NCBI GenBank assembly: GCA_947259165.1 | Contig: CAMYKY010000010.1 | Location: forward strand, 34,433 to 98,432 | Source of the DNA: an uncultured Acidobacteriota bacterium | Lineage (GTDB): Bacteria; Acidobacteriota; Vicinamibacteria; Marinacidobacterales; SMYC01 | Length of the DNA: 64,000 bases | Reading direction: 5' to 3' | In this document: positions 742-57,423 of the stretch, piece by piece | Position numbering within the stretch: the first letter of the stretch is position 1 | How the letters are laid out: each line of letters opens with the position of its first letter | Program-made: the position numbers and the translations under genes | Notes under the pieces: model-generated | Seen by the model: only the letters and a program-made list of their open reading frames with translations | What the model was told of the DNA's origin: nothing | Database searches by the model: none

Positions 742-1920
742 TCAAAGTTGCCTCATCACCCGCGTGCCCGCGACGCGGTCGTGGAGTCCACGCTTGTCGT
801 CGGTAAACGCAATCAGAATGAAACCCAATCCGAGTATCAAAGAGCTCGCAAAATACCCTAACACTCTGAGAAAGGCACGCTGAAACCCTATGGGAGAGTC
901 GCCGTCCTCCGTTTGCACCGAAAGCCCCAGAAGACTCTTTCCCGGCGTCGCACCCCGCGCAGCCCAAAAGAAGACGTAATACCCAAGACAAAGCAGAGGG
1001 AACACGATCGACACCGCTGCCAGGCTTCCTTCCGGAACGGGCCTGGGCCCGGTATCCCCGCCGTCAAGAGCGAACGTCCCCCACAAGAGTGTTGCCACGA
1101 GAAGCGGGATCCCGAGGATCATGCTGTCCACCAGGGCTGCAACGAGGCGAATGCCGAATCCGGCGGCCTCCTCCGCGCGTCGAGCGGCGGGGGTCGGTTT
1201 TCCCGGCCGGGGTCTGCCAGCCGCTATCGAAGCCGCGGGTTTGGCGCCACTTTCGGGTGCCTCGCCGAGAAGCTCGGAGCGATTGACTGCCTGAGTCACC
1301 AAACCGCGATCTTTTTTCGGCAGCTCATGGCCGCAATGGCCGCAAAACTCCGCGGGCAGCGGGACGGCTTTGCCGCACGCGGTACAGTTGACACTCGTCT
1401 TTTTATGGAGCTCGCCCCCGCACGCACGGCAGAAGCGGTCGGTGGCCAACGCCTGTTTTCCGCAGGAACGGCAGCTGAGAGTAGCTCCGGCACCGGGTCC
1501 CGCAGCCGGCGAGGAAGACGCGCCCGGCACGACGTCGCCTCCGCCGGGACCTTCCGGGTTGGCCGGATTGGCGCTATCCGCGGCACCAGCCCCCGCCACG
1601 GCGTCCGGTGCCGCTAGTGCGGTCGGTGCATCTTCGAGCTGGAACAGAAGACGCGAGGATCCGATTGCCACCAAATCCCCATCTCGCAGCGTTTTCTCCG
1701 CGTCAACTTTGTCCCCATTGACCAGGGTGCCGTTCGCGCTGTTGTTGTCCCGGAGCACATAGATATCCTCGCGCTGCTCCAAGATCGCGTGCCGGCGCGA
1801 CACCATCGAATCGGAGAGGACGATATCGTTCGAGGGGTCGCGACCGATCGAGATGACCCTCGAGGCAATCGGGATTTCCTTCTTGCTGGCCGAAGTCGGG
1901 TTGATGAAGAGCTTCGCCAC
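742..1920 (-). CDS. FHA domain protein with double zinc-ribbon and C-terminal RDD membrane domain
   Basis: The N-terminus is an FHA fold (ISIGRDPSNDIVLSDSMVSRRHAILE...NGTLVNG). After a Pro/Ala-rich linker come two zinc ribbons (CRSCG..CRACG and CTACG..CGHCGH). The C-terminus is an RDD-type polytopic membrane domain (LVDSMILGIPLL...KRGLHDRVAGTRV). It sits immediately downstream of the Ser/Thr kinase on the same strand. Confidence 0.8.
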   Translation of the reverse strand: MAKLFINPTSASKKEIPIASRVISIGRDPSNDIVLSDSMVSRRHAILEQREDIYVLRDNNSANGTLVNGDKVDAEKTLRDGDLVAIGSSRLLFQLEDAPTALAAPDAVAGAGAADSANPANPEGPGGGDVVPGASSSPAAGPGAGATLSCRSCGKQALATDRFCRACGGELHKKTSVNCTACGKAVPLPAEFCGHCGHELPKKDRGLVTQAVNRSELLGEAPESGAKPAASIAAGRPRPGKPTPAARRAEEAAGFGIRLVAALVDSMILGIPLLVATLLWGTFALDGGDTGPRPVPEGSLAAVSIVFPLLCLGYYVFFWAARGATPGKSLLGLSVQTEDGDSPIGFQRAFLRVLGYFASSLILGLGFILIAFTDDKRGLHDRVAGTRVMRQL

Positions 1921-1926
1921 AGAGCT

Positions 1927-4164
1927 TCACCTTCCCTGCCGGAAACGGAACCGCTGGACCCAGCGAATCTTGACAGGAACGTCGTACTTGGTTGCCGGGT
2001 CCCAACGCCACCGGCCTACCACATCGGTAACCGCCTCGTCGAAAATCTCGCCAGCCGACTCCTGAACTCGGATATCGGTCACGGCCCCGGTCTCGTCGAC
2101 GATGAAACTCAATTCAACGACACCCTCCAGCCCGTCACGCCGCGCACGCTCGGGATAACGCACGGCAGGACACTGGATGCATTCAGGGTCTACGACCCCC
2201 GCGGTGCCCCGCTCAACGAGCTCGCCCACCTCGACTCGCGGAGCCTGGGGTTCGGTGGGCGCCTCCGGAGTCGACGCGACCTCGCCAACCCGTTCGGTCA
2301 AAACCGCCTCCACCTCCACCGTACGTCCCGGGCGGGCGCGCACAGTGTCTTCCCAGGGAAGAAATCCGTCGCGGACGATGCGCAATTTGCGCTCGCCAGC
2401 CTGAACCTGCAGCCGATCCGTCGGTGTGACGCCGACCGCGCGGCCATCGATCTCCACCTGCGCACCGGCAGGGTTGCTGACGACGCGGACGCGCGCAGGC
2501 GGCGGCGGCTTGGGTGGCTCGGGCTGCAGCGTCACTTCGAGTGTGGCAACGGGAGCGTCAATGCTCAGCTCCGCCGTGAGCTCCTCGGACTGAAAGCCTT
2601 CGTGGCGCACCAGAAGATCGTAAGCCGCAAACGGCAGCTCGCCGAGCTCGAGCGGTGTCGTGCCGCGCTCCTCGCCGTCGACGACGACAGTGGCTCCTTC
2701 GGGCCCGCTGGTGATGAACAAGCTTCCGCTCTCGACGACGTCGACGGGCGCAGGCTCGGGGGGGATCACCGGATCCGATTGCTTCTCACCGCTGCCACCG
2801 GCGAGAAAGACAGCCAGGAGCACTACGAGAGCCACAAGCACGGCGCCACCCGCGAGTGCGAGTTTCTTTTGATCGAAGGGAGGCCGACGAGGACTCATTC
2901 CCCCGGAAATTTCCTTGTCGAGGGAGGCCGGCTCCGCTACGTCAACGGCGATGAGAGTCTCGTCAAGTTGGGCACCCGCGTAGAGCGTTTCCTCCGCCTC
3001 CTCGGCGACATAGACCGTTTCCTCTCCCGTGATCGCTGGGAGAGGGACGCTGGCGATAGTCTTCGTGCCATCAACTTCGGGCACGCTCGCTCCTGCGAAC
3101 GTCGCGGTCGCACCTTCGAGAGCCTCATCCCGGTTCGCTGCGGCCGACGGGAGATTGACCGTTTCGTCGCTGGCCGAGCTCTGGGCATCCGCAGCGGGGA
3201 CGAGCGTACCCGTCACCGGAGACGTAGGTTTTTTCGTGTCGGTCGCACTCGGCGCTTTTTCGAGAAAATTCGCCGGGTCTTTGACGATGATCGTCTCGCC
3301 TTCCAGGGCACCAAACCAAGACCCCAAACAGTGCTCGAGCTGCTCGACGAACATCGCCGCAGTCGGGAATCGCTCGAGGGGATCCTTGCTGAGCACCCTC
3401 GAGAAAACCTGATGCCATTTGTCCGGAAGAAGGCCCAAAATCTCGAGACCATCCGGGTGCACGGGATCTGAGTGCACGAGCTTGTACAGAATCGAGGTCA
3501 CGTTGTTGCCCGGAAACGGCTGCTGACCGCTGAGCATTTCGAAGGCCACGACTCCAAGCGAAAAGATATCGGTTCGCCCGTCCAGGTCTTCGCCCATCGC
3601 TTGTTCGGGAGACATATAGCTGGGCGTTCCCATCATCAGTCCGGAGTTCGTCATCTCCGCGTCCATGAGCTTCGCGATCCCGAAATCCGTGACTTTGACC
3701 TTCTCCCCCCCGAAGACGATCACGTTCGAGGGTTTGATGTCGCGATGGATCACGCCTTCGGTGTGCGCGTAGTCCACGGCGGCCGCAATCTGGGAAACGA
3801 GACCGACGACGACTTCTGGGCGGAGCCGCTCCCCCTCGAGTAGCTCGGCGACGGTCTGCCCCTCGACAAACTCCATCGCAAGCCAAGGAACCTGATCTTC
3901 CGTATGCCCGACATCGTACAAAGTGATGATGTTGGGATGGGACAACCGGCCCGCGGTACGCGCCTCCGTTGCGAAGCGCTCGAGAAACGCCTTGTAGTCA
4001 GGGCTCTGGGGAGGCACGTCGAGGCGTAGCGTTTTGACCGCGACGGGCCGTTTGATGAGCGGGTCGAACGCTTTGTAGACCGCGCCCATGGCACCGAAGC
4101 CAACGGCTTCGATGATCTCATAGCGATCGATCTTCTTGGGGATCTCGCCTCTCGATTCGCTCAA
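1927..4164 (-). CDS. transmembrane Ser/Thr protein kinase with two PEGA domains and a TonB C-terminal domain
   Basis: Hanks kinase motifs are present (GFGAMGAVYKA, VAVK, HRDIKPSNVIV, DFG, SPE). One TM helix follows (LALAGGAVLVALVVLLAVFLAGG). Two PEGA-like repeats (ITSGPEGATVVVDGEERGTTP and VVSNPAGAQVEIDGRAVGVTP) and a C-terminal TonB_C-like fold (GLEGVVELSFIVDETGAVTDIRV...KIRWVQRFRF) complete the protein. Confidence 0.85.
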   Translation of the reverse strand: MSESRGEIPKKIDRYEIIEAVGFGAMGAVYKAFDPLIKRPVAVKTLRLDVPPQSPDYKAFLERFATEARTAGRLSHPNIITLYDVGHTEDQVPWLAMEFVEGQTVAELLEGERLRPEVVVGLVSQIAAAVDYAHTEGVIHRDIKPSNVIVFGGEKVKVTDFGIAKLMDAEMTNSGLMMGTPSYMSPEQAMGEDLDGRTDIFSLGVVAFEMLSGQQPFPGNNVTSILYKLVHSDPVHPDGLEILGLLPDKWHQVFSRVLSKDPLERFPTAAMFVEQLEHCLGSWFGALEGETIIVKDPANFLEKAPSATDTKKPTSPVTGTLVPAADAQSSASDETVNLPSAAANRDEALEGATATFAGASVPEVDGTKTIASVPLPAITGEETVYVAEEAEETLYAGAQLDETLIAVDVAEPASLDKEISGGMSPRRPPFDQKKLALAGGAVLVALVVLLAVFLAGGSGEKQSDPVIPPEPAPVDVVESGSLFITSGPEGATVVVDGEERGTTPLELGELPFAAYDLLVRHEGFQSEELTAELSIDAPVATLEVTLQPEPPKPPPPARVRVVSNPAGAQVEIDGRAVGVTPTDRLQVQAGERKLRIVRDGFLPWEDTVRARPGRTVEVEAVLTERVGEVASTPEAPTEPQAPRVEVGELVERGTAGVVDPECIQCPAVRYPERARRDGLEGVVELSFIVDETGAVTDIRVQESAGEIFDEAVTDVVGRWRWDPATKYDVPVKIRWVQRFRFRQGR

Positions 4165-4385
4165 CGGGGTTCTCCGGCCATCCGGAATTGCAACCGGGGC
4201 CGACGGTCAAATTCGGTCAATGGTGCGAGGTAGCTGTCTCGCCACGAGTCAGGATCTATCTCTCCAAGATACAGTTAAGTCACTCTAACATAACCCTTTA
4301 AGGGGTGTCAACGCGACCCATGTAGCGAGCCGCACCGCGGGACGGTATGATAGCCAGGTCCGCGGACCCCCGGAGTTGCCGAGTT

Positions 4386-5987
4386 CCTATGTCACAAGCT
4401 CAATCGCTCGACTATCGCAGCCTTCCTTCCTACAAACCGTTGTTTCTAGACTATCTGCACCGATTCGACGCTTTGTCATCTTTCTTCGCGGGCGATCCGT
4501 TCGAGCCAGAGTCCTGGACGAAAGTGGCTTCCGAGCTCGACGTTGGCAACGCGCGCACCGGCACCGCCGCTCCACTCAAAGCGCTCAACCAGGCACTGGG
4601 TGCGGACGAGCACGCTTTGCGTTCAATCGACGGGCTTGGCGACGGCGCCCTCGCTGTTGTCAGTGGCCAACAGGTTGGGCTTTTCGGCGGCCCGCTCTAT
4701 ACGCTGTACAAAGCGATGAGCTCGGTGCGGTTAGCGCGCGCAGCGGAAGAGCGACTGCAAAAACGAGTCGTCCCAATATTTTGGATGGACGCCGACGACC
4801 ACGATTTCGCCGAGGTGCAAAGCGCCTGGGTGCTCGACCCGTCGTACGATCTCGTTAACCTGCGCTACGAAGGGGGCGACTCCACCGAGAGACTCGCCGT
4901 CGGCGGGCGCAAGCTGTCTCCCGCTATTGAGGCGGTCGTGGATCACGCGGCCCAATCGCTTCCGCAGACCGAGTTCAAGGAAGACGTGCTCTCAGCGCTC
5001 CGCCAAAGCTACTCACCGGGGAAGACGTTGGCAGAAGCGTTTGGCACGTGGCTTTTGCGCATGACGCGCGGTACTGGCCTCGTCGTCGTCGATCCTGCGC
5101 TTCCGGAGCTCAAAGCGATCGGAGCCAGCGTTTTCGAGCGAGAGCTAGCCGGCGGCTCCACGAGCACCCAGTTGGTGCAACAGACAACCGACGAGCTGCT
5201 CGCCCTGGGCTACCACGCGCAAGCGAACGCCTCGGAAACCAACCTGAACTTGTTCTACGCCGACCCGATGCGCAATCCGATCAGCGCCTCAGCGAACGCA
5301 ACGGAAAAAAGTGACCTGGTGCGCCAGCTCCGAGATGAGCCGACCCGGTTCAGCCCGAACGTGTTGCTCCGCCCCGTCTATCAAGACACGCTATTCCCGA
5401 CTCTCGCTTACGTCGCCGGCCCCAACGAGCTCGCCTACTTTGCGCAGCTGAAACGGGTTTACGAGCATTTCGACGTGACCATGCCCCTCATCGCGTCCCG
5501 CACGAGCCTCACGGTCATTGAGCGGCCGCAGGCACGTTTCCTCGATCGCTACGGCGTGGACCTCGTCAAACTCGACTCGGATGACGAGTCCGTGCTCAAC
5601 GACATCGTCCGTGCACAAACTCCACCTCAGCTCGACGAAGATTTGTCCCGCGCCCGGAACTGCATCCAGGACATCACCACCGCTCTCGAGCGAGACCTCA
5701 AGGGTGTCGACGAGTCGCTCGTTCCCGCTGTCAAGTCGACACGGGGAAAGCTATTTCATCATTTGCAAGAACTCGAGACGAAAGCACTTCGTGCGGTCAA
5801 GCGGAAAAACGACACCGTTCGCCAGCAGTTTCTTGCCACGCGCACGGCGCTGTTCCCCGGCTTCGAGATGCAGGAACGGAAATTGTCGCCACTCGGCTAT
5901 TTCAACAAGTATGGCTGGCACTTCGCGTCGATGGTCGAGGACAAGGCGGACCCCGCGCTCAAAGCGCACGCGCTGCTCTATCCTTAA
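4386..5987 (+). CDS. bshC: bacillithiol biosynthesis cysteine-adding enzyme BshC-like (YllA family)
   Basis: About 535 aa, matching BshC in length. It has the conserved N-terminal stretch VVSGQQVGLFGGPLYTLYKA and VAGPNELAYFAQLK, and a C-terminal coiled-coil. The start is taken as ATG 4386 (MSQAQS), which follows a GGAG; the ORF extends upstream to 4347. Confidence 0.55.
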   Translation, partial: PMSQAQSLDYRSLPSYKPLFLDYLHRFDALSSFFAGDPFEPESWTKVASELDVGNARTGTAAPLKALNQALGADEHALRSIDGLGDGALAVVSGQQVGLFGGPLYTLYKAMSSVRLARAAEERLQKRVVPIFWMDADDHDFAEVQSAWVLDPSYDLVNLRYEGGDSTERLAVGGRKLSPAIEAVVDHAAQSLPQTEFKEDVLSALRQSYSPGKTLAEAFGTWLLRMTRGTGLVVVDPALPELKAIGASVFERELAGGSTSTQLVQQTTDELLALGYHAQANASETNLNLFYADPMRNPISASANATEKSDLVRQLRDEPTRFSPNVLLRPVYQDTLFPTLAYVAGPNELAYFAQLKRVYEHFDVTMPLIASRTSLTVIERPQARFLDRYGVDLVKLDSDDESVLNDIVRAQTPPQLDEDLSRARNCIQDITTALERDLKGVDESLVPAVKSTRGKLFHHLQELETKALRAVKRKNDTVRQQFLATRTALFPGFEMQERKLSPLGYFNKYGWHFASMVEDKADPALKAHALLYP

Positions 5988-6542: not shown

Positions 6543-6608
6543 GCGCGCACCTCGGAAGAAAGAATACCCCATTGGAGGCAGAGGGTCCGATGAGCGCGAC
6601 TCCCGCGG

Positions 6609-24317: not shown

Positions 24318-26246
24318 GTGCTCTCACGAAAAAGATCGTGCCCGTGCCCGCGTGCGTGCCCGTGCCCGAAAAGCGAGCCTTCCGGATTTAGTCGGGGACG
24401 GGGACGGGGACGGGAACGGGAACGGGAACGGGAACGGGAACGGGGCACCCGAACCACGGACATTCTTCGCGGAGTGTTTGGGTATCGCACTTTTCGCGGC
24501 CAACAGGAGTCGGTCATCAACCGCATCGTCTCCGGTGGGAACGCTCTGGTGTTGATGCCCACCGGGGGCGGCAAAAGTCTGTGCTATCAGATCCCAGCGA
24601 TTGCCCGCGACGGGGTCGGAATCATCATTTCGCCGCTCATCGCGCTGATGCAGGATCAGGTGGCGGCTCTCACGGAGGCTGGAGTCCGGGCGGCGTTCGT
24701 GAATTCCAGCCTCGAGCGCCATGTGGCAAGTCGCGTCGAGGACGACATGGTCGCGGGTCGATACGATCTGGTGTACGTCGCGCCGGAGCGCCTCGCCACC
24801 GACTCGTTCGTCAAACGATTGGACGATACCCGCTTGGCGTTGTTCGCCATCGATGAAGCGCACTGCGTGAGCCAGTGGGGCCACGACTTTCGGCCCGAGT
24901 ACCGCAAGCTCGACTTGTTGCACCAACGCTATCCCAACGTCCCGAGAATCGCACTCACCGCAACCGCTGACGCCCCAACTCGGGGTGAGATTCTGACGCA
25001 CCTCGCGTTGTCCGACTCCGACGTGTTCGTCGCCGGCTTCGATCGTCCCAACTTGCGCTACGAGGTCGTACCCAAAGCGAACGGCCGCCAACAACTGTTT
25101 CGATTCATCCGGAGCCGCCATGAGGGGGAGAGTGGCATCGTCTACTGCATGAGTCGCAAGAAGGTCGAGCAAACCACGGAAGTGCTGATAGGCGAGGGGG
25201 TGCCGGCGCTCCCCTACCACGCCGGCTTGGACAAGTCAGTGCGCCAGTCCCATCAAAGGCGGTTCAAGGACGAGCCCGGGATCGTCATCGTCGCCACCAT
25301 CGCCTTCGGTATGGGAATCGACAAGCCGGATGTACGATTCGTCGCCCATCTCGACCTGCCCAAGAGCCTCGAGGCTTACTATCAGGAGACCGGTCGGGCC
25401 GGACGCGACGGGCTGCCCTCGGACGCATGGATGACCTACGGCTATGGAGACGCCGTGTTTATCCGACAAATGGTCGAGCGTTCCGACGCGCCTGCGGAGC
25501 GCAAGCGTCTCGAACAGCTCAAGTTGAACTCATTGCTCGGCTACTGCGAGAGCGCGGAATGTCGACGCGCAATCTTGCTTCGTTACTTCGGTGAAGAGCA
25601 CGCGGGAACGTGCGGCAACTGCGATACCTGCACAAATCCCGTCGAATCGTTCGATGGCACCACGCAAGCCCGCAAAGCGCTATCGAACGTCTACCGCACC
25701 GGCCAACGCTTTGGTGCTGCGTATCTTGCCGACATCCTCGTGGGCGCGTCCGACCCGCGGATCGAGCGCAATGGACACGCGCGCATCTCGACGTTCGGCA
25801 TTGGCGACGAGTTCGACCGGAACGGGTGGATGAGCGTGTACCGCCAGCTCGTAGCAGCCGCACTCCTCTTAGTAGAGCCGGAGCACGGAGGCCTGTCGCT
25901 CTCCGATCGAGCGGCGCCTCTGCTGAAAGGCGACGATACGTTCCGCTTGCGTCGCGACCCGACGCCGGTCAAGGGCAAGTCGCAACCACGCACCGGTTCA
26001 ACCGTCGATACAGTGCTGAGCTCATCCGCAGACCAGAAGCTGTTCGAAGCGCTTCGACAAAAACGCCTCGAGCTCGCGAAATCACAGCGCGTTCCGCCCT
26101 ACGTGATTTTCCACGATCGCACGCTCCTCGAGATGGCCCGCGTCCGTCCCCGCTCGCTGTCCGCCCTAGCCGACATCACCGGCGTGGGTGCCACGAAGCT
26201 GGACAAGTACGGGGATACGTTTCTTGAGTTGCTGAAGGATGAGTGA
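24318..26246 (+). CDS. recQ: ATP-dependent DNA helicase RecQ
   Basis: DEAH helicase motifs ([30 protein letters not shown]). Helicase-C and the Zn-binding RQC ([20 protein letters not shown]). C-terminal HRDC domain. The only in-frame start upstream of the conserved FGYRTFRG block is GTG 24318, so the repeat element is part of the ORF or the start is non-canonical. Confidence 0.9.
24337..24447. repeat. hexamer-TIR element, copy B, lying inside the 5' end of the recQ reading frame
   Basis: Left arm cgtgcccgtgcccgcgtgcgtgcccgtgcccg. 24-nt spacer. Right arm (cggggac)3(cgggaac)4cggggcac. The recQ frame reads it as [11 protein letters not shown]...[16 protein letters not shown]. Confidence 0.75.
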
Positions 26247-26275
26247 ATCCGACACCGAACTCCCAAGCTGAGATC

Positions 26276-26416
26276 GTTCCCGTTCCCGTTCCCGATTGAT
26301 CTTGCTCCTGGCCACTTTTCGGTTCGAAACCGAGCTATTTCGAGCCGCAGGCGGCGACCGAACGAGTTCGATTCAGCATACGTCGGGAACGGGAACGGGG
26401 ACGGGAACGGGGCACC
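26276..26416. repeat. hexamer-TIR element, copy C: (GTTCCC)3 ... (GGGAAC)n
   Basis: Left gttcccgttcccgttcccg. A 90-nt core containing ggttcgaaaccgag. Right cgggaacgggaacggggacgggaacggggcac. It lies 30 nt after the recQ stop and 26 nt before the selenoprotein-candidate ATG. Confidence 0.8.
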
Positions 26417-26441
26417 TTCATTCATGCTATAGATCTCAGCC

Positions 26442-27215
26442 ATGCCAGAGTACAACTACAAAACCTTCCCCCTCGACGCCGATATGCACGACTTCGTGCA
26501 ATTTCCCAATATCGCGCGGGTTGGGACCAAGGCACCGGACGGAGTGCTTATCGATGCCAAGGACGGCAGCGAAGTGCGGCTCGGGGCGCTCTACCGTAAT
26601 GGAGTGAGCGTCATCGAGTTCGGCTCGTTCACGTGACCCTACTGCGCGCAGGCGGGACCCGCGCTCGAGTCCATGGCCACCGAGTTTCGAGAATACGACT
26701 GCCAGTTCGTTTTCGTGTATACCCGCGAGGCGCACCCCAGCGATCGTTATCCGGGCCATGACAACATCGAGCGCAAGCTCGCGCACGCGCGGGCGATGGT
26801 GGAGCAGCTGGGCTTCGCGCGTCCGATGCTCGTCGACGATCTCGACGGGACCGTCCATCATGAGTTCGGACGGCTCCCCAACATGACCTATATCGTCAAC
26901 GCGGGCGGAACGATCGTCTATCGGGCTGCCTGGACCGACCCGCGTACGATTCGTGGCGCCTTCGAGCAAATTCTGTTCGAGCGAGGCGAGAGACGCGAAA
27001 AGAGACGGATCACCCCCTACTATATGGAGTGGCTCCCCCAACGCACCAACGACGACGTCCGGTTCGTCCAGGAGCTGTTCGAGCTCGGGGGCGGCCGGCC
27101 GGTCGACGAGTTCATCACGGCGATGGACAACGTGGAAGGGAATACGGCGACGAAGCAAATCAAACAGTGGTGGGAGAGGCGACAATCGCAACCCGAGACA
27201 ACCACCGAAAGTTGA
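26442..27215 (+). CDS. candidate selenoprotein: thioredoxin-fold, iodothyronine-deiodinase-like protein with in-frame UGA (Sec) at 26634-26636
   Basis: Track ORFs 26442..26636 and 26673..27215 are in the same frame and are split only by that TGA. The read-through peptide is ...VIEFGSFT-U-PYCAQAGPALESMATEFREYD..., close to the deiodinase/Dio-like motif FGSxT-U-PxF and in a redoxin-like context. A GC hairpin (GCGCG-caggcgggacc-CGCGC) begins 8 nt after the UGA, as expected for a bacterial SECIS. Confidence 0.55.
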
Positions 27216-41471: not shown

Positions 41472-41660
41472 GGTGTGACTGGTATCTCCGGATCGAAACT
41501 CGGGTGCAATCCCTTAGTGTAGACCGGTCGCGGGCACGATGCCACGACTAGCGAGACTTTCGACAATGCCCAGGTCAGCTCCACGACCTTCTAACGTTAA
41601 TTTTGAACCGAAGGTTGGACCTGTCCGGCTCGGTTGTGCTCCCGCCGAAGAGAGTTCTTC

Positions 41661-41791
41661 GTTCCCGTTCCCGTTCCCGTTCTCGACTAAGAATGTCCAG
41701 ACCCGTCGGCGAGCGGAGCTCGCCGCGATCAGTCCGTGGTCACGTGAACATCTTTAATCGGGAACGGGAACGGGAACGGGAACGGGAAACG
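41661..41791. repeat. hexamer-TIR element, copy D: (GTTCCC)3-4 ... (GGGAAC)5
   Basis: gttcccgttcccgttcccgttctcg, then a 73-nt core with internal hairpin cggcgagcggagctcgccg, then cgggaacgggaacgggaacgggaacgggaaacg. It is intergenic, upstream of the divergent gdh start. Confidence 0.8.
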
Positions 41792-49281: not shown

Positions 49282-49524
49282 AGTTCTTCTTTTTGTAGCG
49301 AGTTCTTCGATGTCGGTAGTGCGGAGGGAGCACGGAGACAAGTCTTTGAATCGATCGCCCTGAACCTCACGATGTACCTTCAGCACGCGATGGTGCACGC
49401 GGTACCTCTTTTGTGGCGTCCTCATCGCGTCCATCACGCCGATCTCGACGTCGATGTCACCACCGGAGCGCGGTTTCACGTTATCGAAGTCGTCCTCTAC
49501 GCAATAACCCGCCGCGCGGCCTAG
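49195..49524 (+). pseudogene. C-terminal fragment of a fatty-acid hydroxylase/sterol desaturase-family protein
   Basis: Only the last ~70 aa of the family, including the His box HRVHHADLDVD, are present. The reading frame begins inside the 49129..49281 element. Confidence 0.45.
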
Positions 49525-49635
49525 AAGTGCGCCAAAAAACCCAATATTTGGGTTCCTAGGCGCTTGCGACTGCCGACCCTCGACCGGAACTCCGTCAAAG
49601 ACTGAAGTGCAGGGACTTTGCCCCGTCCCCAAGAG

Positions 49636-49651
49636 TGGAACACCGCTTGCA
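49636..49651 (+). promoter_or_regulatory. candidate sigma-54 (-24/-12) promoter for the nos operon
   Basis: TGGAAC-accgc-TTGCA matches TGGCAC-N5-TTGCW with correct spacing, ~105 nt upstream of the cytochrome c start. It overlaps a palindrome CTTGCacGCAAG. Confidence 0.4.
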
Positions 49652-49756
49652 CGCAAGCAGCTGTGGCTCAGCTCAGAACCCAACGGTGATACTGTAGCCA
49701 GGGTTCAGAGCTTTGTATTTTTCAAAACTCTTCAAGAGAAAGGCAGGGTCGGACGG

Positions 49757-50533
49757 ATGAAACGGAAATCGACCATTCTTTTTATTCTGGTCCTAGGAGT
49801 CGCCATGTGGTCGGGGGACACGCTGGCACAGGACGTCGAGCGGGGTAAGGCCGTTTACGATTCGCGCTGTGTCATATGCCACGGTGATCAAGGCGACGGC
49901 AAAGGCCTCATCGGGATTGTGCATCGAGCTCAGCAAAACGGCATGGTGGTCACGATCTACCCTCGAGACTTCACCGCGGGTGTCTACAAGTTCCGAAGCA
50001 CACCTAGCGGCGACCTCCCCACCGACGACGATCTCATGCGCATCGTGACCGAAGGGATTTCGCGTTCGGGGATGCCGTCCCACACGGATATTTCCGAGGC
50101 CGACCGTCAAGCCGTCATCGCGTACATCAAGACATTCTCCAAACGGTGGGCGGAAGAGGAGCCTGGCACACCGCTCGTCATCGAGGCCGCCCCGGCGGCA
50201 GTCGGCTCGGGCGAATCCAGCGGGCGCGGTAAGGACGTCTACGCGACCATGCAGTGCTCCAAGTGTCACGGTGATACCGGCAAGGGCGACGGACCGTCAT
50301 CCGCCGATCTCGAAGACAGCTGGGGCGACAAGATTCTGCCTTTCGATTTCACATCCGGTCCTCTCAAGGGTGGTTCGACGCCGGAAATGGTTTATCGCAC
50401 GTTCATGACCGGCCTCGACGGCACGCCGATGCCTTCCTATCAAGACGCGCTACCCGAGGAGCAGGCGCGGTGGGATCTCGTTTCGTACTGTTTAGAACTG
50501 ATGGCCGGGGCACCCGGCGACACCGACCAATGA
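49757..50533 (+). CDS. di-heme c-type cytochrome (probable electron donor to NosZ)
   Basis: Signal peptide MKRKSTILFILVLGVAMWSG and two CxxCH sites (CVICHG, CSKCHG). It overlaps the nosZ start. Confidence 0.85.
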   Translation: MKRKSTILFILVLGVAMWSGDTLAQDVERGKAVYDSRCVICHGDQGDGKGLIGIVHRAQQNGMVVTIYPRDFTAGVYKFRSTPSGDLPTDDDLMRIVTEGISRSGMPSHTDISEADRQAVIAYIKTFSKRWAEEEPGTPLVIEAAPAAVGSGESSGRGKDVYATMQCSKCHGDTGKGDGPSSADLEDSWGDKILPFDFTSGPLKGGSTPEMVYRTFMTGLDGTPMPSYQDALPEEQARWDLVSYCLELMAGAPGDTDQ

Positions 50534-50571
50534 AGGCTAGAGGAATGCGAATGTCAAACAGGAGGGATTTA

Positions 50572-52383
50572 ATGGTTTCTACGCGGTTTCTTATCGTCCT
50601 ATCGGTCGCACTCGCCGTCGGTCTCACTTTTGGCTGCGCCGGCGGCGGTTCGCAGGAGGGCGGCGGCTCTGGAGCGGCGGTATCACACGCAGACCACGAA
50701 GTAGCTCCGGGCGAGCTCGACGATTACTACGGTTTCTTCAGCGGAGGCCACTCGGGCGAGGTTCGCGTCCTAGGCATTCCGTCTATGCGCGTTTTGAAAC
50801 GCATCCCGGTTTGGAACATCGACCCGGGTAGCGGTTGGGGGATTACCAACGAGAGCCGGGCACTACTGGGCGGCATGCAAACCGGCGACACCCACCACGT
50901 CCACGGCTCCTACGAAGACGGGACCTACGACGGCAAATGGCTCTTCGTGAACGACAAGCTCAACAATCGCATGGCGCGCATTCGTGTCGACCTCATGGAA
51001 GTTGATGCCGTCGTCAACGTCCCGCACGCACAAGGAGCCCACGGACTCTTCCCGCAGCGCTACCCCTCGACCGAGTGGGTCGTTCTCAACAGCGAGTTCC
51101 GCACGCCGCTTTCAAACGACGGTCGCGGCGACATGCTCGATGCATCCACCTACGGCGGCGTCCATACAATCATCAACGCCGCCGACATGGAAATCGTGGC
51201 TCAAGTCACAACGCCGGTGAACCTCGATCTCGCGGCCACCGACTACCAGGGCAAGTACTCGTTCGCAACGTCCTACAACAGCGAAGGCGGTGCGACGATC
51301 TCCGAAATGCTCGCGAGCGATCGTGACTATCTCGTGGTCTTCAACTGGGAGGCGATCAAAGAAGCGCTCGCCAACAACAACTACCGAATCGTCGACGACA
51401 TCAAGATCCTAGATGGCACCGAGGGCACAGGGCTCACTGCCTACATCCCGATCCCGAAGAACCCGCACGGCGTGAACATCAGCCCTGACGGGAACTACGC
51501 TGTCGCTTGCGGCAAAGTGTCTCCGACGGTGAGTATCATCGACATCAACAAGCTCGACGACCTCTTCGCCGGTAACATCGAGCCTAGGGACGCTGTCGTG
51601 GGCGAGCCCGAAGTAGGTCTCGGCCCCCTGCACACCACTTTCGACGGTCGGGGCAACGCGTACACATCGCTGTTCATCGACAGCCAGGAAGTGAAGTGGA
51701 ACATCCAAAAGGCCATCGACCTGTACTCCAACCCCGTCGAGGGTGAGACCGCCGTCGTCGATCGTCTCGATATCCACTACCAGGTCGGGCATACCATGGC
51801 TTCGATGGCCGAGACGAAGGAAGCGGACGGAAAGTACCTCATCTCGCTCAACAAGATCTCCAAGGATCGCTTCTTGAACGTGGGCCCGCTCAAACCGGAG
51901 AACGATCAGCTCATCGACATCTCGAACGATGAAATGATTCTCTTGAAAGACGAGCCCGCGTACATCGAGCCGCACGATTGCATCATCGTCAGACGAGACC
52001 TCATCGAGCCCCATGTCGTACACCGAGCGGTCCTCGAAGAGCATCCCTTGGCGGTCACGCAGAGCTCGGTAGAACGCGTTGGCAACAAGGTGACGGCGCG
52101 CATCACGGCGTCGGCACCGGTTTATGGCCTCCAGGAAGTGGTCGTCAATCAAGGGGACGAGGTAACGTTCATCGTCACCAACACCGATGAGATACCCGAT
52201 TTGGCGCACGGCTTCGCGATCTCGAACTACAACGTCAGCTTCGTCGTCGGCCCATTCCAGACGAAGTCAGTAACGATCACTGCGGACAAGCCGGGTATGT
52301 ATTGGATCTACTGCACGAACTTTTGCCACGCGCTTCACCTAGAAATGCGGATGCGGTTCGTCGTCAATCCACGCTCGACTTAG
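50572..52383 (+). CDS. nosZ: nitrous-oxide reductase NosZ
   Basis: Conserved N-terminal beta-propeller (DDYYGFFSGGHSGEVRVLGIPSMRVLKRIPVWN, GDTHHVHGSYEDGTYDGKWLFVNDKLNNRMARIRVD). C-terminal cupredoxin CuA site (YCTNFCHALHLEM). The signal peptide type is ambiguous: an RRDLM motif is present, but a strong AGGAGGG precedes the ATG at ~50575, which would give a Sec-type or lipoprotein signal. Confidence 0.95.
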   Translation: MVSTRFLIVLSVALAVGLTFGCAGGGSQEGGGSGAAVSHADHEVAPGELDDYYGFFSGGHSGEVRVLGIPSMRVLKRIPVWNIDPGSGWGITNESRALLGGMQTGDTHHVHGSYEDGTYDGKWLFVNDKLNNRMARIRVDLMEVDAVVNVPHAQGAHGLFPQRYPSTEWVVLNSEFRTPLSNDGRGDMLDASTYGGVHTIINAADMEIVAQVTTPVNLDLAATDYQGKYSFATSYNSEGGATISEMLASDRDYLVVFNWEAIKEALANNNYRIVDDIKILDGTEGTGLTAYIPIPKNPHGVNISPDGNYAVACGKVSPTVSIIDINKLDDLFAGNIEPRDAVVGEPEVGLGPLHTTFDGRGNAYTSLFIDSQEVKWNIQKAIDLYSNPVEGETAVVDRLDIHYQVGHTMASMAETKEADGKYLISLNKISKDRFLNVGPLKPENDQLIDISNDEMILLKDEPAYIEPHDCIIVRRDLIEPHVVHRAVLEEHPLAVTQSSVERVGNKVTARITASAPVYGLQEVVVNQGDEVTFIVTNTDEIPDLAHGFAISNYNVSFVVGPFQTKSVTITADKPGMYWIYCTNFCHALHLEMRMRFVVNPRST

Positions 52384-52396
52384 GCAGACTGCGCTC

Positions 52397-55300
52397 ATGA
52401 GTCACGGAGGACTAAGAGCGCTGATTCTCGTAGGGCTCGGGGCGATCTTCGCCTCGAGCCCCGTCGGGGCTCAGCTTCCGTTCGGCGAACAACAGTACGA
52501 GTACGAGCTTTCGGACGTCCTACCGGGCGCCTCGAGCTTCGAGCAAGTCGAGGATCCGGAGCACTACTGGCGAGGCTACGCCGACGAGGGCCAACAACAG
52601 CTCGTCGGTTTCGTTTTTCTGACCGACGATCTCGTCGACATCCCCGGGTATTCCGGCGAGACCATGAACACTCTCGTCGGGATGGATACCGAGGGGACGA
52701 TCACCGGGATCAAGATCGTCCATCACTCGGAGCCCATCGTTCTCATCGGTCTCGACGAGTCCGTTATTCACGAGTTTACGGGTCAATACACTGGCAAGAG
52801 CATCACCGATCGCATCCTCATCAGTAACGAGCCGAAGGAAGGCTACACCGTCGTCGACGCCATCAGCGGAGCTACCGTGACCGCCGTGGCAGAGAACGCG
52901 ACCGTGCTCGAGGCGGGTCGTTTGGTCGCTCGCGCCGAAGGGATCGTCAGCGCAGCAGACATTCGCTCGCGAAGACCCAGCATGGTTTTCGAGGAGCTCT
53001 CGTGGACGGAGCTCGTTTCCCGAGGCGCCATCGGTTCGATTTCGGCAGAGCCCGGGGAGCAGGGTTTACCGTCCGGAGCGGGGAGCGTCGATGTCCGGTT
53101 CACCGTCTTGGATCCGCCGAGCGTCGGTCAAAACCTCCTGGGCGAGCGTTTCTACACCGTCGTGAAAGAGCGTCTTGCCAACGATGGAGGCAGCGCCCTG
53201 TACATCGGAAGCATCGCGGGAGTTTCTTTCAAGGGGGCCGGCTTCGCACGCGGCGGCATCTTCGACCGGTTTGTCATCGAGCAGTCAGGAGATCTCTTCG
53301 TCTTCAAGGATCTCGACTACATGGGTTTTCCGGCGCTCGAGCTCGACGATGCTCCCCGCTTCCAGGAAGGCGGGATCTTTTTCGTCGACGAGGGGTTCGA
53401 CCCCGCGGAGGAGTTCTCGTTTCGACTCACGTTTCCGTATCGCGTGGCCGACCAGCGAACCTACGCGACGCTCATCGCCGACTTCGGATTGCCCAGTAGG
53501 TTCATCGAGTCAGACCAGCCGTTCTGGGTGAGCCGATGGCAAGCGGCATGGGGCGCAGTGCTGTTCACCGGGCTGCTCTTGGGGGTCATCACCACGGCGT
53601 TCGTGTTCAAGGAGCGCATGACGCCGCATCGTAAGCTTCTACACAACACGACGGCGCTGCTCGCCGCGGTTGTCCTCGGACTCATTTTCAAAGCCCAACC
53701 GAGCACGACGCAGATACTCACTCTTTTTGGCTCGCTCGCGAGACTCGAGTTCCCCAAGGAAATCTTCCTGTCCGAGCCGCTCATCTTCATGCTGTGGATC
53801 TCGATCGCAGTCACCCTCGTCATCTGGGGTCGCGGATTCTTCTGTGGCTGGGTGTGCCCGTACGGCGCACTACTCGAGTCCTTCATCTCCGTGTGGCACA
53901 AGCTCGCACCCAAGAAACTGCAGAAAAGAATCGACGCCTGGCGTCCGCCACCGTTTCTCCGCTACGGAAAGATGTTCACGTTCGTGGTCATCCTCCTCGT
54001 CTCCTTCGCTAGCCTGCCGCTCGCCGAGGCACTCGACGAGATCGAGCCGTTCAAGACGTTCGTTCTGCACCTCGCTCGGCCTTCGGCCTTCGTCATTTAC
54101 TTCGTGCTCATCACCCTGGTCTCGGTCGTCAGCTATCGATTCTTCTGCCGGTTCATGTGTCCTCTCGGCGGCGCACTCGCCATCCCGTCGGCGAGGAAAC
54201 CGCTTCTTCCTTTGTACCGCTACGAGACGTGCACAAACTGCAAGATCTGCGCGAAAGGTTGCGAGCCCCAGGCGATCTCGTTCGACACGGGCGTCATCGA
54301 CTATCAAGAATGCCTCCAGTGTTGGGACTGCCAGGCGACCGGGAAGAACGAGGGCGTCTGTCCCGAGCTCATCGTCTCCAAGAAAGAGAACCGTGCGCCC
54401 AGATATCTCGTTGTCAGCATTCTCTTGATGATCTTGGGAACACCCGCCACACCGGAAGCGGAGGAAATTCAGGTGCAACCCGGCGGCCTCGAGCATGCCC
54501 TGGCTGCTGCGAGCGACGGTGATACTCTCGTGCTCGCGTCGGGAGTCCATCCGGGCGCCCTCATCCTCACGAAGTCCGTCTCGCTGCGCGGACAACCGGG
54601 CGCAATTCTCGACGGTGGCGGAACCGGCCACGCTCTCATGATCGATGCACCCGCAGTGACGGTCGAGAACCTGACCGTGCGCAACTGCCGCGTCGACGAC
54701 GAGTACGCCGACACCGGTATTTGGGTCGAGAAGGCTTCCAAGGGCACGCGACTCATCGGCAACACTGTCGAGTCTTGCCGCTTCGGCATCTGGATCCACG
54801 GCTCACAAGAGACCGAGGTTATCGACAACCAGGTAATCGGCATCGAAGAGCTGACTCAGAACCAGCGCGGAGACTGCATCCATCTGTGGGACGCCGACGG
54901 GACCAAGGTGTCGGGGAACAAGATCAGACACTGCCGCGACGGAATTTACATGGAGCTCACCAGCGAGGGGGAGATCGAGAACAACCAGATCTTCGACTCG
55001 CGCTACGCGGTTCACACCATGTGGTGCGATCGCAGCCGCTACATCGACAACTACGCGTCCGGGAACCTCGTCGGTTTGGCGCTCATGTTCTCCTCGCACA
55101 TCGAATCGAGAGGGAACATCCTTCACAATAACCGGACGCACGGCATGCTGTGGATTCAGGTCACTCGTGGAAAAGCCCTTGACAACGTCATCATCGGCAA
55201 TACCAAAGGCATCTTCGTCTATAACTCGCTCTACAACGAGATCCGAGGTAATCTGATCGCACGGAACAATCTGGGCGCGCACTACTGGGGCGGCTCCGAA

Positions 55301-55708
55301 GACAACGTCATGGAGCAAAACGCCTTCATCGATAACGAGATCCAAGCCAAATACGTTGCCGCGAAAGACCAGCAGTGGAACGGGAACTTCTGGAGCGATT
55401 ACGGTGGGTGGGACATGGACGAAGACGGCACCGGCGAGACGCCGTATCGCTCGAACACACTGGTCGACGCGCTTCTTTGGCAGTACCCGCACTCCAAGTT
55501 CCTGCTCGCGAGCCCGGCGTTTCAACTTCTGGCCCTGGCCGAAAGAGAGTTCCCCGTGATCACCTATCCGAAAGCGGTCGACTCATCGCCGCTGATGTCG
55601 CCGTCCATGGCCGAGTGGGAGTCGCTCCTGGAACGCTATCCCGGCAATCCTCAGCAGTACTATTTGGAGATGCAGAAGCTTCCTCATCTGCCCGGAGAGG
55701 TCGACTGA
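52397..55708 (+). CDS. nosR-nosD: NosR-like (FMN-binding + NapH-type FeS membrane + ferredoxin) protein fused to NosD (periplasmic copper-binding beta-helix protein)
   Basis: Residues 1-~680 contain an FMN_bind motif (ISGATVTAV), a polytopic membrane region with CxxxCP motifs (FFCGWVCPYG, FFCRFMCPLG) and a 2x[4Fe-4S] C-terminus (CTNCKICAKGC..CLQCWDCQ). After one further TM segment (YLVVSILLMILG), residues ~700-1103 show NosD-like parallel beta-helix repeats (NTVESCRFGIWIHGS, NKIRHCRDGIYME, NQIFDSRYAVHTMW, GNLIARNNLGAHYWG). A single continuous ORF. Confidence 0.8.
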   Translation: MSHGGLRALILVGLGAIFASSPVGAQLPFGEQQYEYELSDVLPGASSFEQVEDPEHYWRGYADEGQQQLVGFVFLTDDLVDIPGYSGETMNTLVGMDTEGTITGIKIVHHSEPIVLIGLDESVIHEFTGQYTGKSITDRILISNEPKEGYTVVDAISGATVTAVAENATVLEAGRLVARAEGIVSAADIRSRRPSMVFEELSWTELVSRGAIGSISAEPGEQGLPSGAGSVDVRFTVLDPPSVGQNLLGERFYTVVKERLANDGGSALYIGSIAGVSFKGAGFARGGIFDRFVIEQSGDLFVFKDLDYMGFPALELDDAPRFQEGGIFFVDEGFDPAEEFSFRLTFPYRVADQRTYATLIADFGLPSRFIESDQPFWVSRWQAAWGAVLFTGLLLGVITTAFVFKERMTPHRKLLHNTTALLAAVVLGLIFKAQPSTTQILTLFGSLARLEFPKEIFLSEPLIFMLWISIAVTLVIWGRGFFCGWVCPYGALLESFISVWHKLAPKKLQKRIDAWRPPPFLRYGKMFTFVVILLVSFASLPLAEALDEIEPFKTFVLHLARPSAFVIYFVLITLVSVVSYRFFCRFMCPLGGALAIPSARKPLLPLYRYETCTNCKICAKGCEPQAISFDTGVIDYQECLQCWDCQATGKNEGVCPELIVSKKENRAPRYLVVSILLMILGTPATPEAEEIQVQPGGLEHALAAASDGDTLVLASGVHPGALILTKSVSLRGQPGAILDGGGTGHALMIDAPAVTVENLTVRNCRVDDEYADTGIWVEKASKGTRLIGNTVESCRFGIWIHGSQETEVIDNQVIGIEELTQNQRGDCIHLWDADGTKVSGNKIRHCRDGIYMELTSEGEIENNQIFDSRYAVHTMWCDRSRYIDNYASGNLVGLALMFSSHIESRGNILHNNRTHGMLWIQVTRGKALDNVIIGNTKGIFVYNSLYNEIRGNLIARNNLGAHYWGGSEDNVMEQNAFIDNEIQAKYVAAKDQQWNGNFWSDYGGWDMDEDGTGETPYRSNTLVDALLWQYPHSKFLLASPAFQLLALAEREFPVITYPKAVDSSPLMSPSMAEWESLLERYPGNPQQYYLEMQKLPHLPGEVD

Positions 55709-55712
55709 CTCG

Positions 55713-56603
55713 ATGATTCGCTTTGACCGTGCCACCAAGACCTTCGGCTCCTTGGAAGCGCTTGCGCCGCTCGATCTCGAGATCAAGGACAGCGAATGGC
55801 TCGGGGTCTTCGGTCGCAACGGCTCGGGCAAAACGACGCTGTTGCGAATGCTGGTGGGGCTGTCGCAGCCGTCCGGCGGACAACTCCTGATCGACGGCAA
55901 GCCGCCCGGCCCGGAGGACTGGCGAGAGTTTCGGCGCTCGCTCGGTTTCATGCCGGAGCGGGTTGCGCTATTCGACAACCTTACCGGTGAGAAAACGCTA
56001 CGGTATTTCGCGCGACTCAAACAGGTCGACCTAGGCGAAGTCATGCCAATCCTCGAGCGCGTCGGACTGGCGGACGCGGCCCATCGGAAGACCTCGGATT
56101 ACTCCAAGGGAATGCGTCAACGCTTGAACCTCGCGCAAGCGCTGCTGGGGGATCCGAAGTTCCTCGTCCTCGACGAGCCGATCGAAGGTCTCGACGCTCA
56201 CGGTGTGCGCGATTTCTTCGAGCTGCTGAAAAGTGTGAAGGGACGCACGGTCGTGTTCTCGTCGCACCGGCTTCCGCTCATCTCTCGGATCGTCGATCGA
56301 ATCTGCATTCTGAGTCAAGGCAAGATCAAAGCGCTCGGAACGGAGGATGAGCTCTACGAACAGGTCAACCTTCCAGTCCGAGTCGTGATCCATCCCGCGG
56401 ACAGCGCGTCCACGCGCCTGGCTGCCGCCGTCGACAAGCTCGACTCGGCGTCTCTGGTGAGCCAAAACGGTCGTCTCGTCGTGAGCGTGGCGCAAAAGGA
56501 CAAGCTGCGGTTTCTCAGCGACCTGCAAGCTCTGAGCTCCGAGATGCACGACATCCGCATCGAGGAACCCTCTCTCGAGGAGGTGCTTCTTGAAACGGGT
56601 TGA
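55713..56603 (+). CDS. nosF: ABC transporter ATP-binding protein NosF
   Basis: Walker A GRNGSGKTTL, signature YSKGMRQRL, Walker B LVLDEP, in the nos context directly after nosD. Confidence 0.9.
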   Translation: MIRFDRATKTFGSLEALAPLDLEIKDSEWLGVFGRNGSGKTTLLRMLVGLSQPSGGQLLIDGKPPGPEDWREFRRSLGFMPERVALFDNLTGEKTLRYFARLKQVDLGEVMPILERVGLADAAHRKTSDYSKGMRQRLNLAQALLGDPKFLVLDEPIEGLDAHGVRDFFELLKSVKGRTVVFSSHRLPLISRIVDRICILSQGKIKALGTEDELYEQVNLPVRVVIHPADSASTRLAAAVDKLDSASLVSQNGRLVVSVAQKDKLRFLSDLQALSSEMHDIRIEEPSLEEVLLETG

Positions 56604-57423
56604 CGCGGTCTGGAGCATCGCTCGAAAAGAGTTATCTGACCGGCTGCGGAACCAGTGGATCTGGACGGTGAGCCTTCTCGTTCTCGCGGCAACCCTCGCG
56701 ATCGCCTTTCTCGGCGCAGCACCCGTGGGTGTCGTCGGCGCTCACGGAGGCGGCGCGATCCTCGCGAGCATCATGAACCTCGCCGTCTACCTCGTCCCCC
56801 TTTTGGCGTTGGTCATGGGCGCGGGGGCGATCATCGACGAGAAGCGCCGCGGGCTGCTGGATTTGATCCTCGCCTACCCGATCTCGTCGAGCGAGTACTT
56901 TCTCGGGACGTTTTTGGGCTATGCTCTCGCGCTCGCAATCGCTCTCGTCGCGAGTTTCGTCCCCACCGGCGTGGTCCTCAGCATGACCACAGGGATCAAC
57001 GTCTTTCAGTACAGCCTTCTCCTCGTGCTCATTCTCGGCCTCGGCACGAGCTTTCTCGCGCTCTCGTTCCTGATCTCGATTCTTTCACGAGACCCCGCGC
57101 GCGGCATCGCCTCGTCAGTGCTCGTATGGATATTCGCGGTGCTGGTATTCGACCTCGGGCTCGTGGGACTCCTCGTTGGGTTCGGGGGGCAAATTCCAGC
57201 GCCGGCGTTTGGCGCCATGATGCTGTTGAACCCAACGGACGTATTTCGATTGATCGCGTTTACCTGGGTCGGAAGCGCGTCGTCACCCCTGGGGCTCGCC
57301 ACGGTGAGCCCTCCTTTTCCAGCGGTGGTGCTCGTGAGCGCCATGACAGCTTGGGCGATCGTGCCGCTTTGGCTCAGCCACCGCTTGTTTCAAAAACGCC
57401 TAGCTCTGGACAGGTTGATATGA
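56590..57423 (+). CDS. nosY: ABC-2 type permease NosY
   Basis: Six TM helices. It overlaps the nosF stop and shows the typical nosFY translational coupling. Confidence 0.85.
   Translation: MKRVDAVWSIARKELSDRLRNQWIWTVSLLVLAATLAIAFLGAAPVGVVGAHGGGAILASIMNLAVYLVPLLALVMGAGAIIDEKRRGLLDLILAYPISSSEYFLGTFLGYALALAIALVASFVPTGVVLSMTTGINVFQYSLLLVLILGLGTSFLALSFLISILSRDPARGIASSVLVWIFAVLVFDLGLVGLLVGFGGQIPAPAFGAMMLLNPTDVFRLIAFTWVGSASSPLGLATVSPPFPAVVLVSAMTAWAIVPLWLSHRLFQKRLALDRLI

Follow-up and report, generated by a model that had tools for sequence, protein, structure and literature searches.

A single reading frame with one internal TGA

We analysed a 64,000-nt stretch of DNA from an uncultured Acidobacteriota bacterium (GenBank assembly GCA_947259165.1, contig CAMYKY010000010.1, positions 34,433 to 98,432), hereafter called the window and numbered from its first letter. 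Our subject is a gene at 26442-27215 that is predicted to encode a deiodinase-like selenoprotein. The first-pass annotation of this DNA had noticed two open reading frames (ORFs) in the same frame, parted only by the TGA at 26634-26636, and had proposed that this codon is decoded as selenocysteine (Sec, U). We observed that a single frame does run on the forward strand from 26442 to the terminal TGA at 27213-27215, with TGA 26634-26636 as its sole internal stop. The features of the locus are listed here.

26442-27215, forward strand: complete predicted selenoprotein coding sequence of 257 codons, Sec65 among them, followed by the stop TGA at 27213-27215
26514-26948, forward strand: predicted thioredoxin-fold (deiodinase/peroxiredoxin/TlpA-like) catalytic domain, residues 25-169, from Pfam, a PDB sequence match and Foldseek
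26619-26645, forward strand: active-site motif F60-G-S-F-T-U65-P-Y-C68, a predicted UxxC redox pair, with the Cys68 codon at 26643-26645
26634-26636, forward strand: in-frame UGA, predicted selenocysteine U65; TGA is kept in relatives and aligned to Cys/Sec
26646-26664, forward strand: hairpin resembling a selenocysteine insertion sequence (SECIS), with 5' arm 26646-26652, 3' arm 26658-26664 and an A.C mismatch at 26650/26660
26653-26657, forward strand: apical loop CGGGA of the hairpin, including the family-invariant G at 26654
26673-26675, forward strand: ATG of Met78, the false start of the 180-aa product in gene calls; database homologues start at or near there
26727-26738, forward strand: EAHP of the YTREAHPSD motif within the catalytic domain
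26949-27212, forward strand: family-specific C-terminal extension, residues ~170-257, recognised by conservation

The residues around the junction are VIEFGSFT-[TGA]-PYCAQAGPALESMATEF, in agreement with the EFGSFT[U]PYC reported in the first-pass annotation. Twelve codons, translating as PYCAQAGPALES and including the partner Cys, lie between the TGA and the downstream ATG. In the ORF listing the two halves appear as a 64-aa ORF (26442-26636) and a 180-aa ORF from the ATG at 26673. The expectation that standard annotation would mis-split such a gene proved correct: the 64-aa and 180-aa products are two separate NCBI proteins on one shared contig of 103,593 bp, and the window's own C-terminal piece is database entry P0106. 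The active site is absent from either annotated piece, and joining them restores the predicted 257-aa selenoprotein. Third-position G+C is 0.76 and 0.81 in the two halves, high as in real genes (60.5% G+C in the window overall), and the start ATG lies three codons 5' of a YNY motif conserved in the family. The tryptic peptide predicted across U65 is NGVSVIEFGSFT-U-PYCAQAGPALESMATEFR.

Many neighbouring genes, like the selenoprotein gene itself, terminate with TGA. UGA is therefore an ordinary stop in this host, and any read-through must be local and signal-dependent; an alternative genetic code with UGA as Trp or Gly is ruled out by the same terminators. Among the in-frame TGA codons of the 64 kb that passed a coding-composition screen, a redox motif occurs at just one, 26634-26636. 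The candidates at 6591 (+), 43461 (-), 43611 (-) and 45033 (-) were rejected as shadow frames without a redox motif, and the one at 1929 (-) as the junction of two real genes (kinase; FHA/RDD protein). There, on the reverse strand at 742-4206, a Ser/Thr kinase gene with a TonB-C-like end and the next gene, encoding an FHA/RDD-domain protein, share a frame with one TGA (1927-1929) between them, a chance arrangement that involves no selenoprotein.

A thioredoxin-fold domain extends across the TGA

For profile searches we used the window protein with a placeholder Cys at codon 65. The Pfam model T4_deiodinase (PF00837) scored 35.4 bits over residues 25-161 (E = 9.3e-9; gathering score 27), crossing the TGA at residue 65. 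Redoxin (38.5 bits) and AhpC-TSA (35.8 bits) matched with E ~1e-9, likewise above their curated thresholds and across the TGA, and the three thioredoxin-clan matches jointly span residues 25-169. The idea that a redoxin-like fold continues past the UGA was thereby borne out. Since Redoxin and AhpC-TSA score similarly to T4_deiodinase, we place the family assignment at the level of this thioredoxin-clan branch. As a sequence pattern, domain matches that straddle the TGA in this way form an arrangement far beyond chance.

The best PDB sequence match was the catalytic core of mouse Dio3, the type 3 iodothyronine deiodinase (4tr3, E = 1.6e-7), followed by a type 2 deiodinase (9h48). In the HMMER alignment the U65 placeholder falls exactly on Sec170Cys of the crystallised Dio3 mutant 4tr3, and the Y-x-x-EAHPSD motifs are aligned too. 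Codon 65 also falls on Cys in two full-length homologues, P0081 (FGSFT-C-PLC) and P0093 (GSFT-C-PHY). The deiodinase-like active site suggested in the first-pass annotation therefore stands for FGSFT-U and for the alignment to the Dio3 Sec position; the PYC that follows makes a UxxC pair and is not the PxF of the T-U-P-P-F type.

No NCBIfam model captures this clade. The closest, NF038285 ('deiodinase family protein'), gave 65.2 bits over model positions 177-325 of 347, below its cut-off of 250. The NCBIfam models for ResA, Tpx and TlpA were all far under their cut-offs, with 18.8 bits against 170 for ResA (NF002854). Residues ~170-257 form a C-terminal extension of ~90 aa in which neither Pfam nor NCBIfam found a domain and which holds the conserved stretch P..E....R......F...L....G..A. 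The window protein lacks a signal peptide, and judged by eye, residues 1-40 (MPEYNYKTFPLDADMHDFVQFPNIARVGTKAPDGVLIDAK) contain no N-terminal hydrophobic segment or membrane anchor.

Structural comparison was made with an AlphaFold2 model of the Cys homologue P0081, which is 37% identical to the window protein (pLDDT 85, pTM 0.82). In this model Cys69-x-x-Cys72 lies between the strand 59-65 and the first long helix (70-89), at the helix N-terminus, and the region equivalent to the C-terminal extension is predicted to be mostly helical. A Foldseek search of the PDB placed 3gl3, 4nmu, 1su9 and 7kuu among the top matches, which comprise DsbE/ResA/TlpA-type oxidoreductases, Dio3 and 1-Cys peroxiredoxins. 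Target TM-scores were 0.8-0.88 for 3gl3, 4nmu and 1su9; Dio3 ranked second, with the longest alignment and the top query TM-score (0.57).

The TGA is conserved in relatives from many phyla

A protein search of a 5.8-billion-protein collection returned 94 homologues. One genome per GTDB species was also scanned, which yielded 470 related stretches; the best 80 were fetched, and three loci from look-ups brought the set to 83. About 90 of the 94 database homologues are ~174-aa pieces beginning at or near the Met after the TGA, the pattern expected where gene callers truncate a selenoprotein. Together with the source record, these entries hold products of ~174-180 aa that are cut short, and some also hold an orphan 64-aa ORF.

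In every one of the 83 loci we observed a stop at the aligned codon, always TGA and never TAA or TAG (80 by regular expression, 3 by eye), and none has TGT or TGC there. The first-pass annotation had named, as the outcome that would overturn its proposal, homologues that all start at the downstream Met; the conserved N-terminal part is present in 83 of 83. These counts also bear on a sequencing or assembly error, by which the TGA in this contig would stand for a Cys codon, TGC or TGT. A one-base error in an assembly from an uncultured organism would suffice, but the same TGA, with a matching SECIS hairpin, recurs in all 83 loci from other assemblies, made in different projects and on different platforms, and we regard the chance of such an error as negligible.

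The hosts of the fetched loci are Acidobacteriota, Chloroflexota (Dehalococcoidia/SAR202, Thermomicrobiales and Ktedonobacteraceae), Planctomycetota, Myxococcota, Verrucomicrobiota, Rokubacteria and others. Within the best 80 of 470, the closest relatives (65-71% identical) come from Candidatus Marinacidobacterales (class Vicinamibacteria) and other Acidobacteria metagenome-assembled genomes. Mean identity to the window over 79 homologues is 45% in the part N-terminal to the TGA and 46% in the C-terminal part. For the N-terminal part of the reconstructed genes, pN was 0.24-0.43 against a pS of 0.47-0.82, the latter largely saturated. Both halves, on either side of the TGA, are under purifying selection. 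At least 80% of the 80 reconstructed homologues keep EFGS.TUPYC, and the same holds for the N-terminal motifs YNY, APD and EFGS-x-T. The 12 codons from TGA to Met are conserved as protein, with an invariant Cys at +3, and E96, A97, H98 and P99 are nearly invariant.

Several relatives depart from the common pattern. The full-length relative P0087 has Ala in place of Sec, with Cys at -3 and +3 (FGCYTAPPC), an arrangement that points to a reorganised active site. In the AT-rich, Dehalococcoidia/SAR202-type loci L034, L035, L037 and L039 (TGA at 1693), U-S-E-C replaces U-P-Y-C. Three long-read Marinacidobacterales-type assemblies, L002 and L003 (~2720-2964) and L007 (~1430-1673), have the N-terminal part broken by a frameshift and a short deletion, with the TGA, hairpin and C-terminal part intact; the cause is either a pseudogene confined to the lineage or an indel error in the long reads. 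No gene neighbour conserved across phyla was found around the fetched loci, the adjacency to RecQ being confined to the acidobacterial clade.

Could the TGA be a true stop, leaving a pseudogene or two small genes of 64 and 180 aa? The public gene calls do keep the pieces separate, an ATG is available 12 codons past the TGA, and the N-terminal breaks in L002, L003 and L007 would signify decay in some lineages or assemblies. However, the stop falls exactly at the catalytic Cys/Sec position, in the middle of a thioredoxin-fold domain; the 12 codons that separate it from the ATG (PYCAQAGPALES) are conserved as protein, partner Cys included; the stop is TGA across phyla without exception; both halves are under purifying selection; and a covarying hairpin lies 3' of the TGA. 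We consider a true stop highly improbable. The comparative sequence data effectively exclude a pseudogene, a split gene and a sequencing error.

A covarying hairpin lies directly downstream of the TGA

For 78 distinct sequences we aligned the 48 nt that begin with the TGA; the alignment is free of gaps. The register shared by the family pairs 26646-26653 with 26657-26664 (columns 13-20 and 24-31), giving 8 pairs and a loop of 3-5 nt. Standard pairs fill 90.1% of the cells in this register, compared with 31-47% in slid registers, where the 3' arm is displaced by 1-3 nt. Two-sided changes occur in 6 of the 8 pairs (57 cells), and pair 15/29 alone shows six pair types. RNAalifold by itself recovers the core of the helix.

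The pairing also crosses the codon structure. Whether codon +4 is Gly or Ala (GGN or GCN) goes together with the third base of the Ala codon at +9 (GCC or GCG), and the third base of codon +4 changes in step with the residue at +9, which may be Ala, Val or Asp (G-C, A-U, U-A). Covarying pairs therefore tie synonymous sites to amino-acid replacements five codons apart, a pattern in the alignment for which protein constraints cannot account. At column 21 (26654), a four-fold degenerate Ala wobble position in the loop, G is present in 78 of 78 sequences. The AT-rich members L034-L039 retain a GC-rich hairpin, which in L034, L035, L037 and L039 is CCCUGGCGGCGCCAGG in an AT-rich context. The family is a clean example of an RNA signal laid over a conserved peptide, U-P-Y-C-G-L-A-A-P-A-L.

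In the window the hairpin has 4+2 base pairs and a predicted free energy of -8.8 kcal/mol with flanks. The distance from the UGA is 9 nt to the start of its stem and 18 nt to the invariant G. This is the usual geometry of bacterial SECIS elements, such as that of E. coli fdhF, and of the bSECISearch consensus. The first-pass annotation had placed a GC-rich stem-loop where such elements sit, and the covarying hairpin of the 78-sequence alignment confirms that placement. The particular stem it described is present (GCGCG at 26644-26648, an 11-nt loop and CGCGC at 26660-26664, with the first stem base at the 8th nt after the TGA), but the conserved register lies 2 nt to the 3' side and is the more stable of the two (-7.4 versus -5.7 kcal/mol). 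We therefore rejected the register 26644-26648/26660-26664: it is possible in the window but is not the one that the family conserves. On its comparative support and geometry, we identify the hairpin at 26646-26664 as a bacterial SECIS element.

The hairpin also bears on whether the UGA is recoded or suppressed with a residue other than Sec, be it Cys through a tRNA(Sec)-like tRNA-Cys (selC*), or Trp or another residue through a suppressor or an 'allo-tRNA' such as has been reported in Acidobacteria. From deltaproteobacteria, tRNA(Sec)-like tRNA-Cys species have been described that may work as opal suppressors, and from Acidobacteria unusual tRNAs that are candidate suppressors (PMC5389517). 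Sec machinery was not seen in the 64-kb window, and a paralogue in locus L058 has TGG (Trp) at the equivalent codon. Yet the hairpin is conserved, keeps a constant spacing to the UGA and has a G in its apical loop, which together mark SelB-dependent Sec insertion, and the family is catalogued as a selenoprotein family. Insertion of Cys predicts frequent TGT or TGC in close relatives, where we counted 0 in 83 loci, and a general suppressor would read through the gene's own TGA terminator as well. We judge non-Sec recoding to be very unlikely.

We observed a continuous frame under selection, an alignment of codon 65 to Sec and Cys, and a conserved, covarying hairpin. We put the probability at roughly nine in ten that 26442-27215 is one gene for a 257-residue cytoplasmic thioredoxin-fold deiodinase-like selenoprotein in which the UGA at codon 65 is decoded as Sec. 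Several points weigh against this assignment. The A.C mismatch at pair 17/27 is unique to the window among the 78 sequences, and the window hairpin taken alone, at -7.4 kcal/mol, is only moderately stable. The minimum free energy of 26634-26700 as a single sequence is no better than that of shuffles (z = +1.2), so that one sequence does not establish the hairpin; it is the comparative covariation that shows it to be real. The observed covariation score was attained in 0 of 500 column shuffles, a control that ignores phylogeny, for which the slid-register control corrects. Rfam reported no SECIS and no RNA family, either in the whole window at the gathering threshold or in 26560-26760 at E up to 10, a null result that is uninformative because bacterial SECIS elements are gene-specific. 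The structural model derives from a Cys homologue of 37% identity and not from the window protein. The genes for tRNA-Sec, SelA, SelB and SelD do not lie in the 64-kb window, which leaves the Sec-decoding trait of the host to be inferred, and selenium incorporation and enzymatic activity are themselves predictions.

A member of the bacterial deiodinase-like selenoprotein family

Deiodinase-like selenoproteins of bacteria were described in 2005 from the Sargasso Sea metagenome, together with Cys homologues and bacterial SECIS elements (PMC1088965). That study counted 4 sequences with Sec and 6 with Cys, recorded them under Pfam00837 and proposed a redox role unrelated to thyroid hormone. A later table gives the deiodinase-like protein as PF00837, UxxC and 1 Sec (PMC13188914), and selenoproteins are known to occur in both Acidobacteria and Chloroflexi (PMC1794560). 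The window gene likewise scores above the PF00837 gathering score and has a single predicted Sec in UxxC, Cys homologues, a SECIS hairpin right after the UGA whose small apical loop contains G, and a presumed redox role. Nothing that defines the family differs in the window gene; its hairpin has the one A.C mismatch. Judged by its sequence, the gene shares every testable feature of the family, and it is a genuine, previously unannotated member of an already known selenoprotein family.

The animal deiodinases DIO1-3 share with the window protein a homologous thioredoxin/peroxiredoxin-like catalytic domain, Sec at the same site after FGS-x-T, and the (Y/I)-x-x-EAHPSD motif, followed by a His ~8-17 residues on. 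They differ in their signature, FGS(A/C)T-U-PPF, where the window has FGSFT-U followed by P-Y-C, and in their N-terminal membrane anchor, which the window protein lacks; the window protein in turn has the additional C-terminal extension. The predicted SECIS of the window is a bacterial in-frame hairpin, whereas the eukaryotic SECIS is a 3'-UTR element. By these features the protein is not an animal-type deiodinase, and thyroid hormones would not be its expected substrate.

Proteins of the TlpA/ResA/DsbE group and the 1-Cys and atypical peroxiredoxins resemble the window protein in fold, in the redox pair at the N-terminus of helix alpha-1 (in the P0081 model) and in the Redoxin and AhpC-TSA matches. 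Unlike it, they have Cys in place of Sec and are mostly secreted or membrane-anchored, while the EAHP(S/G)D and LVDDL...LPNM motifs of the window protein belong to the deiodinase type.

A second deiodinase-like subfamily, EFGSIT-U-PPFVGEVP, adjoins the UxxC gene in three loci: L043 (284-1033, TGA at 488), L052 (518-1282, TGA at 746) and L058 (2424-3176). It has in common with the UxxC clade the N-terminal YNY, the motifs EAHPGE, LVDD, LPNM and WTD, an in-frame TGA in the corresponding place and a hairpin of its own. It differs in the deiodinase-type U-P-P-F, in lacking a Cys at +3 and in its higher NF038285 score (100 bits), and its SECIS, CCUCCC-UUUGUG-GGGAGG, is distinct and starts immediately after the UGA. 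In the sister gene of L058 the corresponding codon is TGG (Trp), through either genuine loss of Sec or a fault in the assembly.

Proposed decoding and catalysis

By analogy with the established bacterial Sec pathway, SelB-GTP-Sec-tRNA(Sec) would bind the mRNA hairpin at 26646-26664 as the ribosome nears the UGA, bringing Sec to the A site against competition from release factor 2. The hairpin would then melt in translation, and the ribosome would continue through PYCAQAGPALES to the stop at 27213. SelB binding and selenium insertion are thus postulated steps, and selA, selB, selC and selD would have to lie elsewhere in the genome. Within the 64-kb window we found no tRNA; regular expressions for SelA, SelB and SelD signatures returned nothing, and Pfam scans of 20 window ORFs, including all those in the SelA/SelB/SelD size range, gave no Sec-machinery family. 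The gene implies that its Acidobacteriota-like host decodes UGA as Sec and needs selenium. With no NCBIfam model for the clade, automated pipelines will go on mis-splitting the gene.

In the folded protein helix alpha-1 would have Sec65 at its N-terminus and Cys68 a turn further along. The selenolate would attack an oxidised substrate (a disulfide, a peroxide or another electrophile) and then form an Se-S bond with Cys68, which a thioredoxin- or glutaredoxin-type reductant would re-reduce. From sequence and the homologue model, the protein is most likely a cytoplasmic selenol/thiol oxidoreductase, with a Sec65-Cys68 selenenylsulfide as an intermediate of its cycle. Elsewhere in the window, 4326-5987 encodes a homologue of BshC (E = 1e-90), a bacillithiol biosynthesis protein, which suggests that the host may use bacillithiol as its low-molecular-weight thiol; this could be relevant to the reduction of the selenoprotein.

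Sec is predicted in all 83 fetched species-representative relatives, and Cys forms occur only among the most distant homologues. This distribution raises a speculative and rather unlikely alternative: for enzymes of the UxxC clade that carry the C-terminal extension, Sec may be essentially obligate, and they might perform chemistry that Cys cannot support, such as deiodinase-type reductive dehalogenation. In marine and soil Acidobacteriota, SAR202/Dehalococcoidia and Myxococcota, their substrates would be natural organohalogens. If so, this obligate dehalogenating clade would be the bacterial counterpart of the thyroid-hormone deiodinases rather than a generic disulfide reductase.

Other features of the window

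Arrays of the hexamer GGGAAC/GTTCCC occur at 24394-24444, 26268-26418 and 41658-41786 (18 matches against 0.34 expected). Inverted hexamer pairs at 26275-26295/26383-26411 and 41658-41684/41760-41786 flank ~75-90 nt. The array copy between RecQ and the selenoprotein start is predicted to fold into a long hairpin (-74.4 kcal/mol, z = -5.5), and the array pattern is absent from all 83 related loci. From its sequence it looks like a genome-specific palindromic element of the REP/MITE kind. At 24318-24444 the RecQ ORF as listed begins inside a hexamer array, and the true RecQ start is probably downstream of ~24445.

The window also contains a nitrous-oxide reductase cluster at 49508-57423, with the following genes.

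49508-50533: di-haem cytochrome c
50275-52383: NosZ, with propeller and cupredoxin domains
52343-55708: 1121-aa ORF
55596-56603: ABC ATPase
56536-57423: ABC-2 permease

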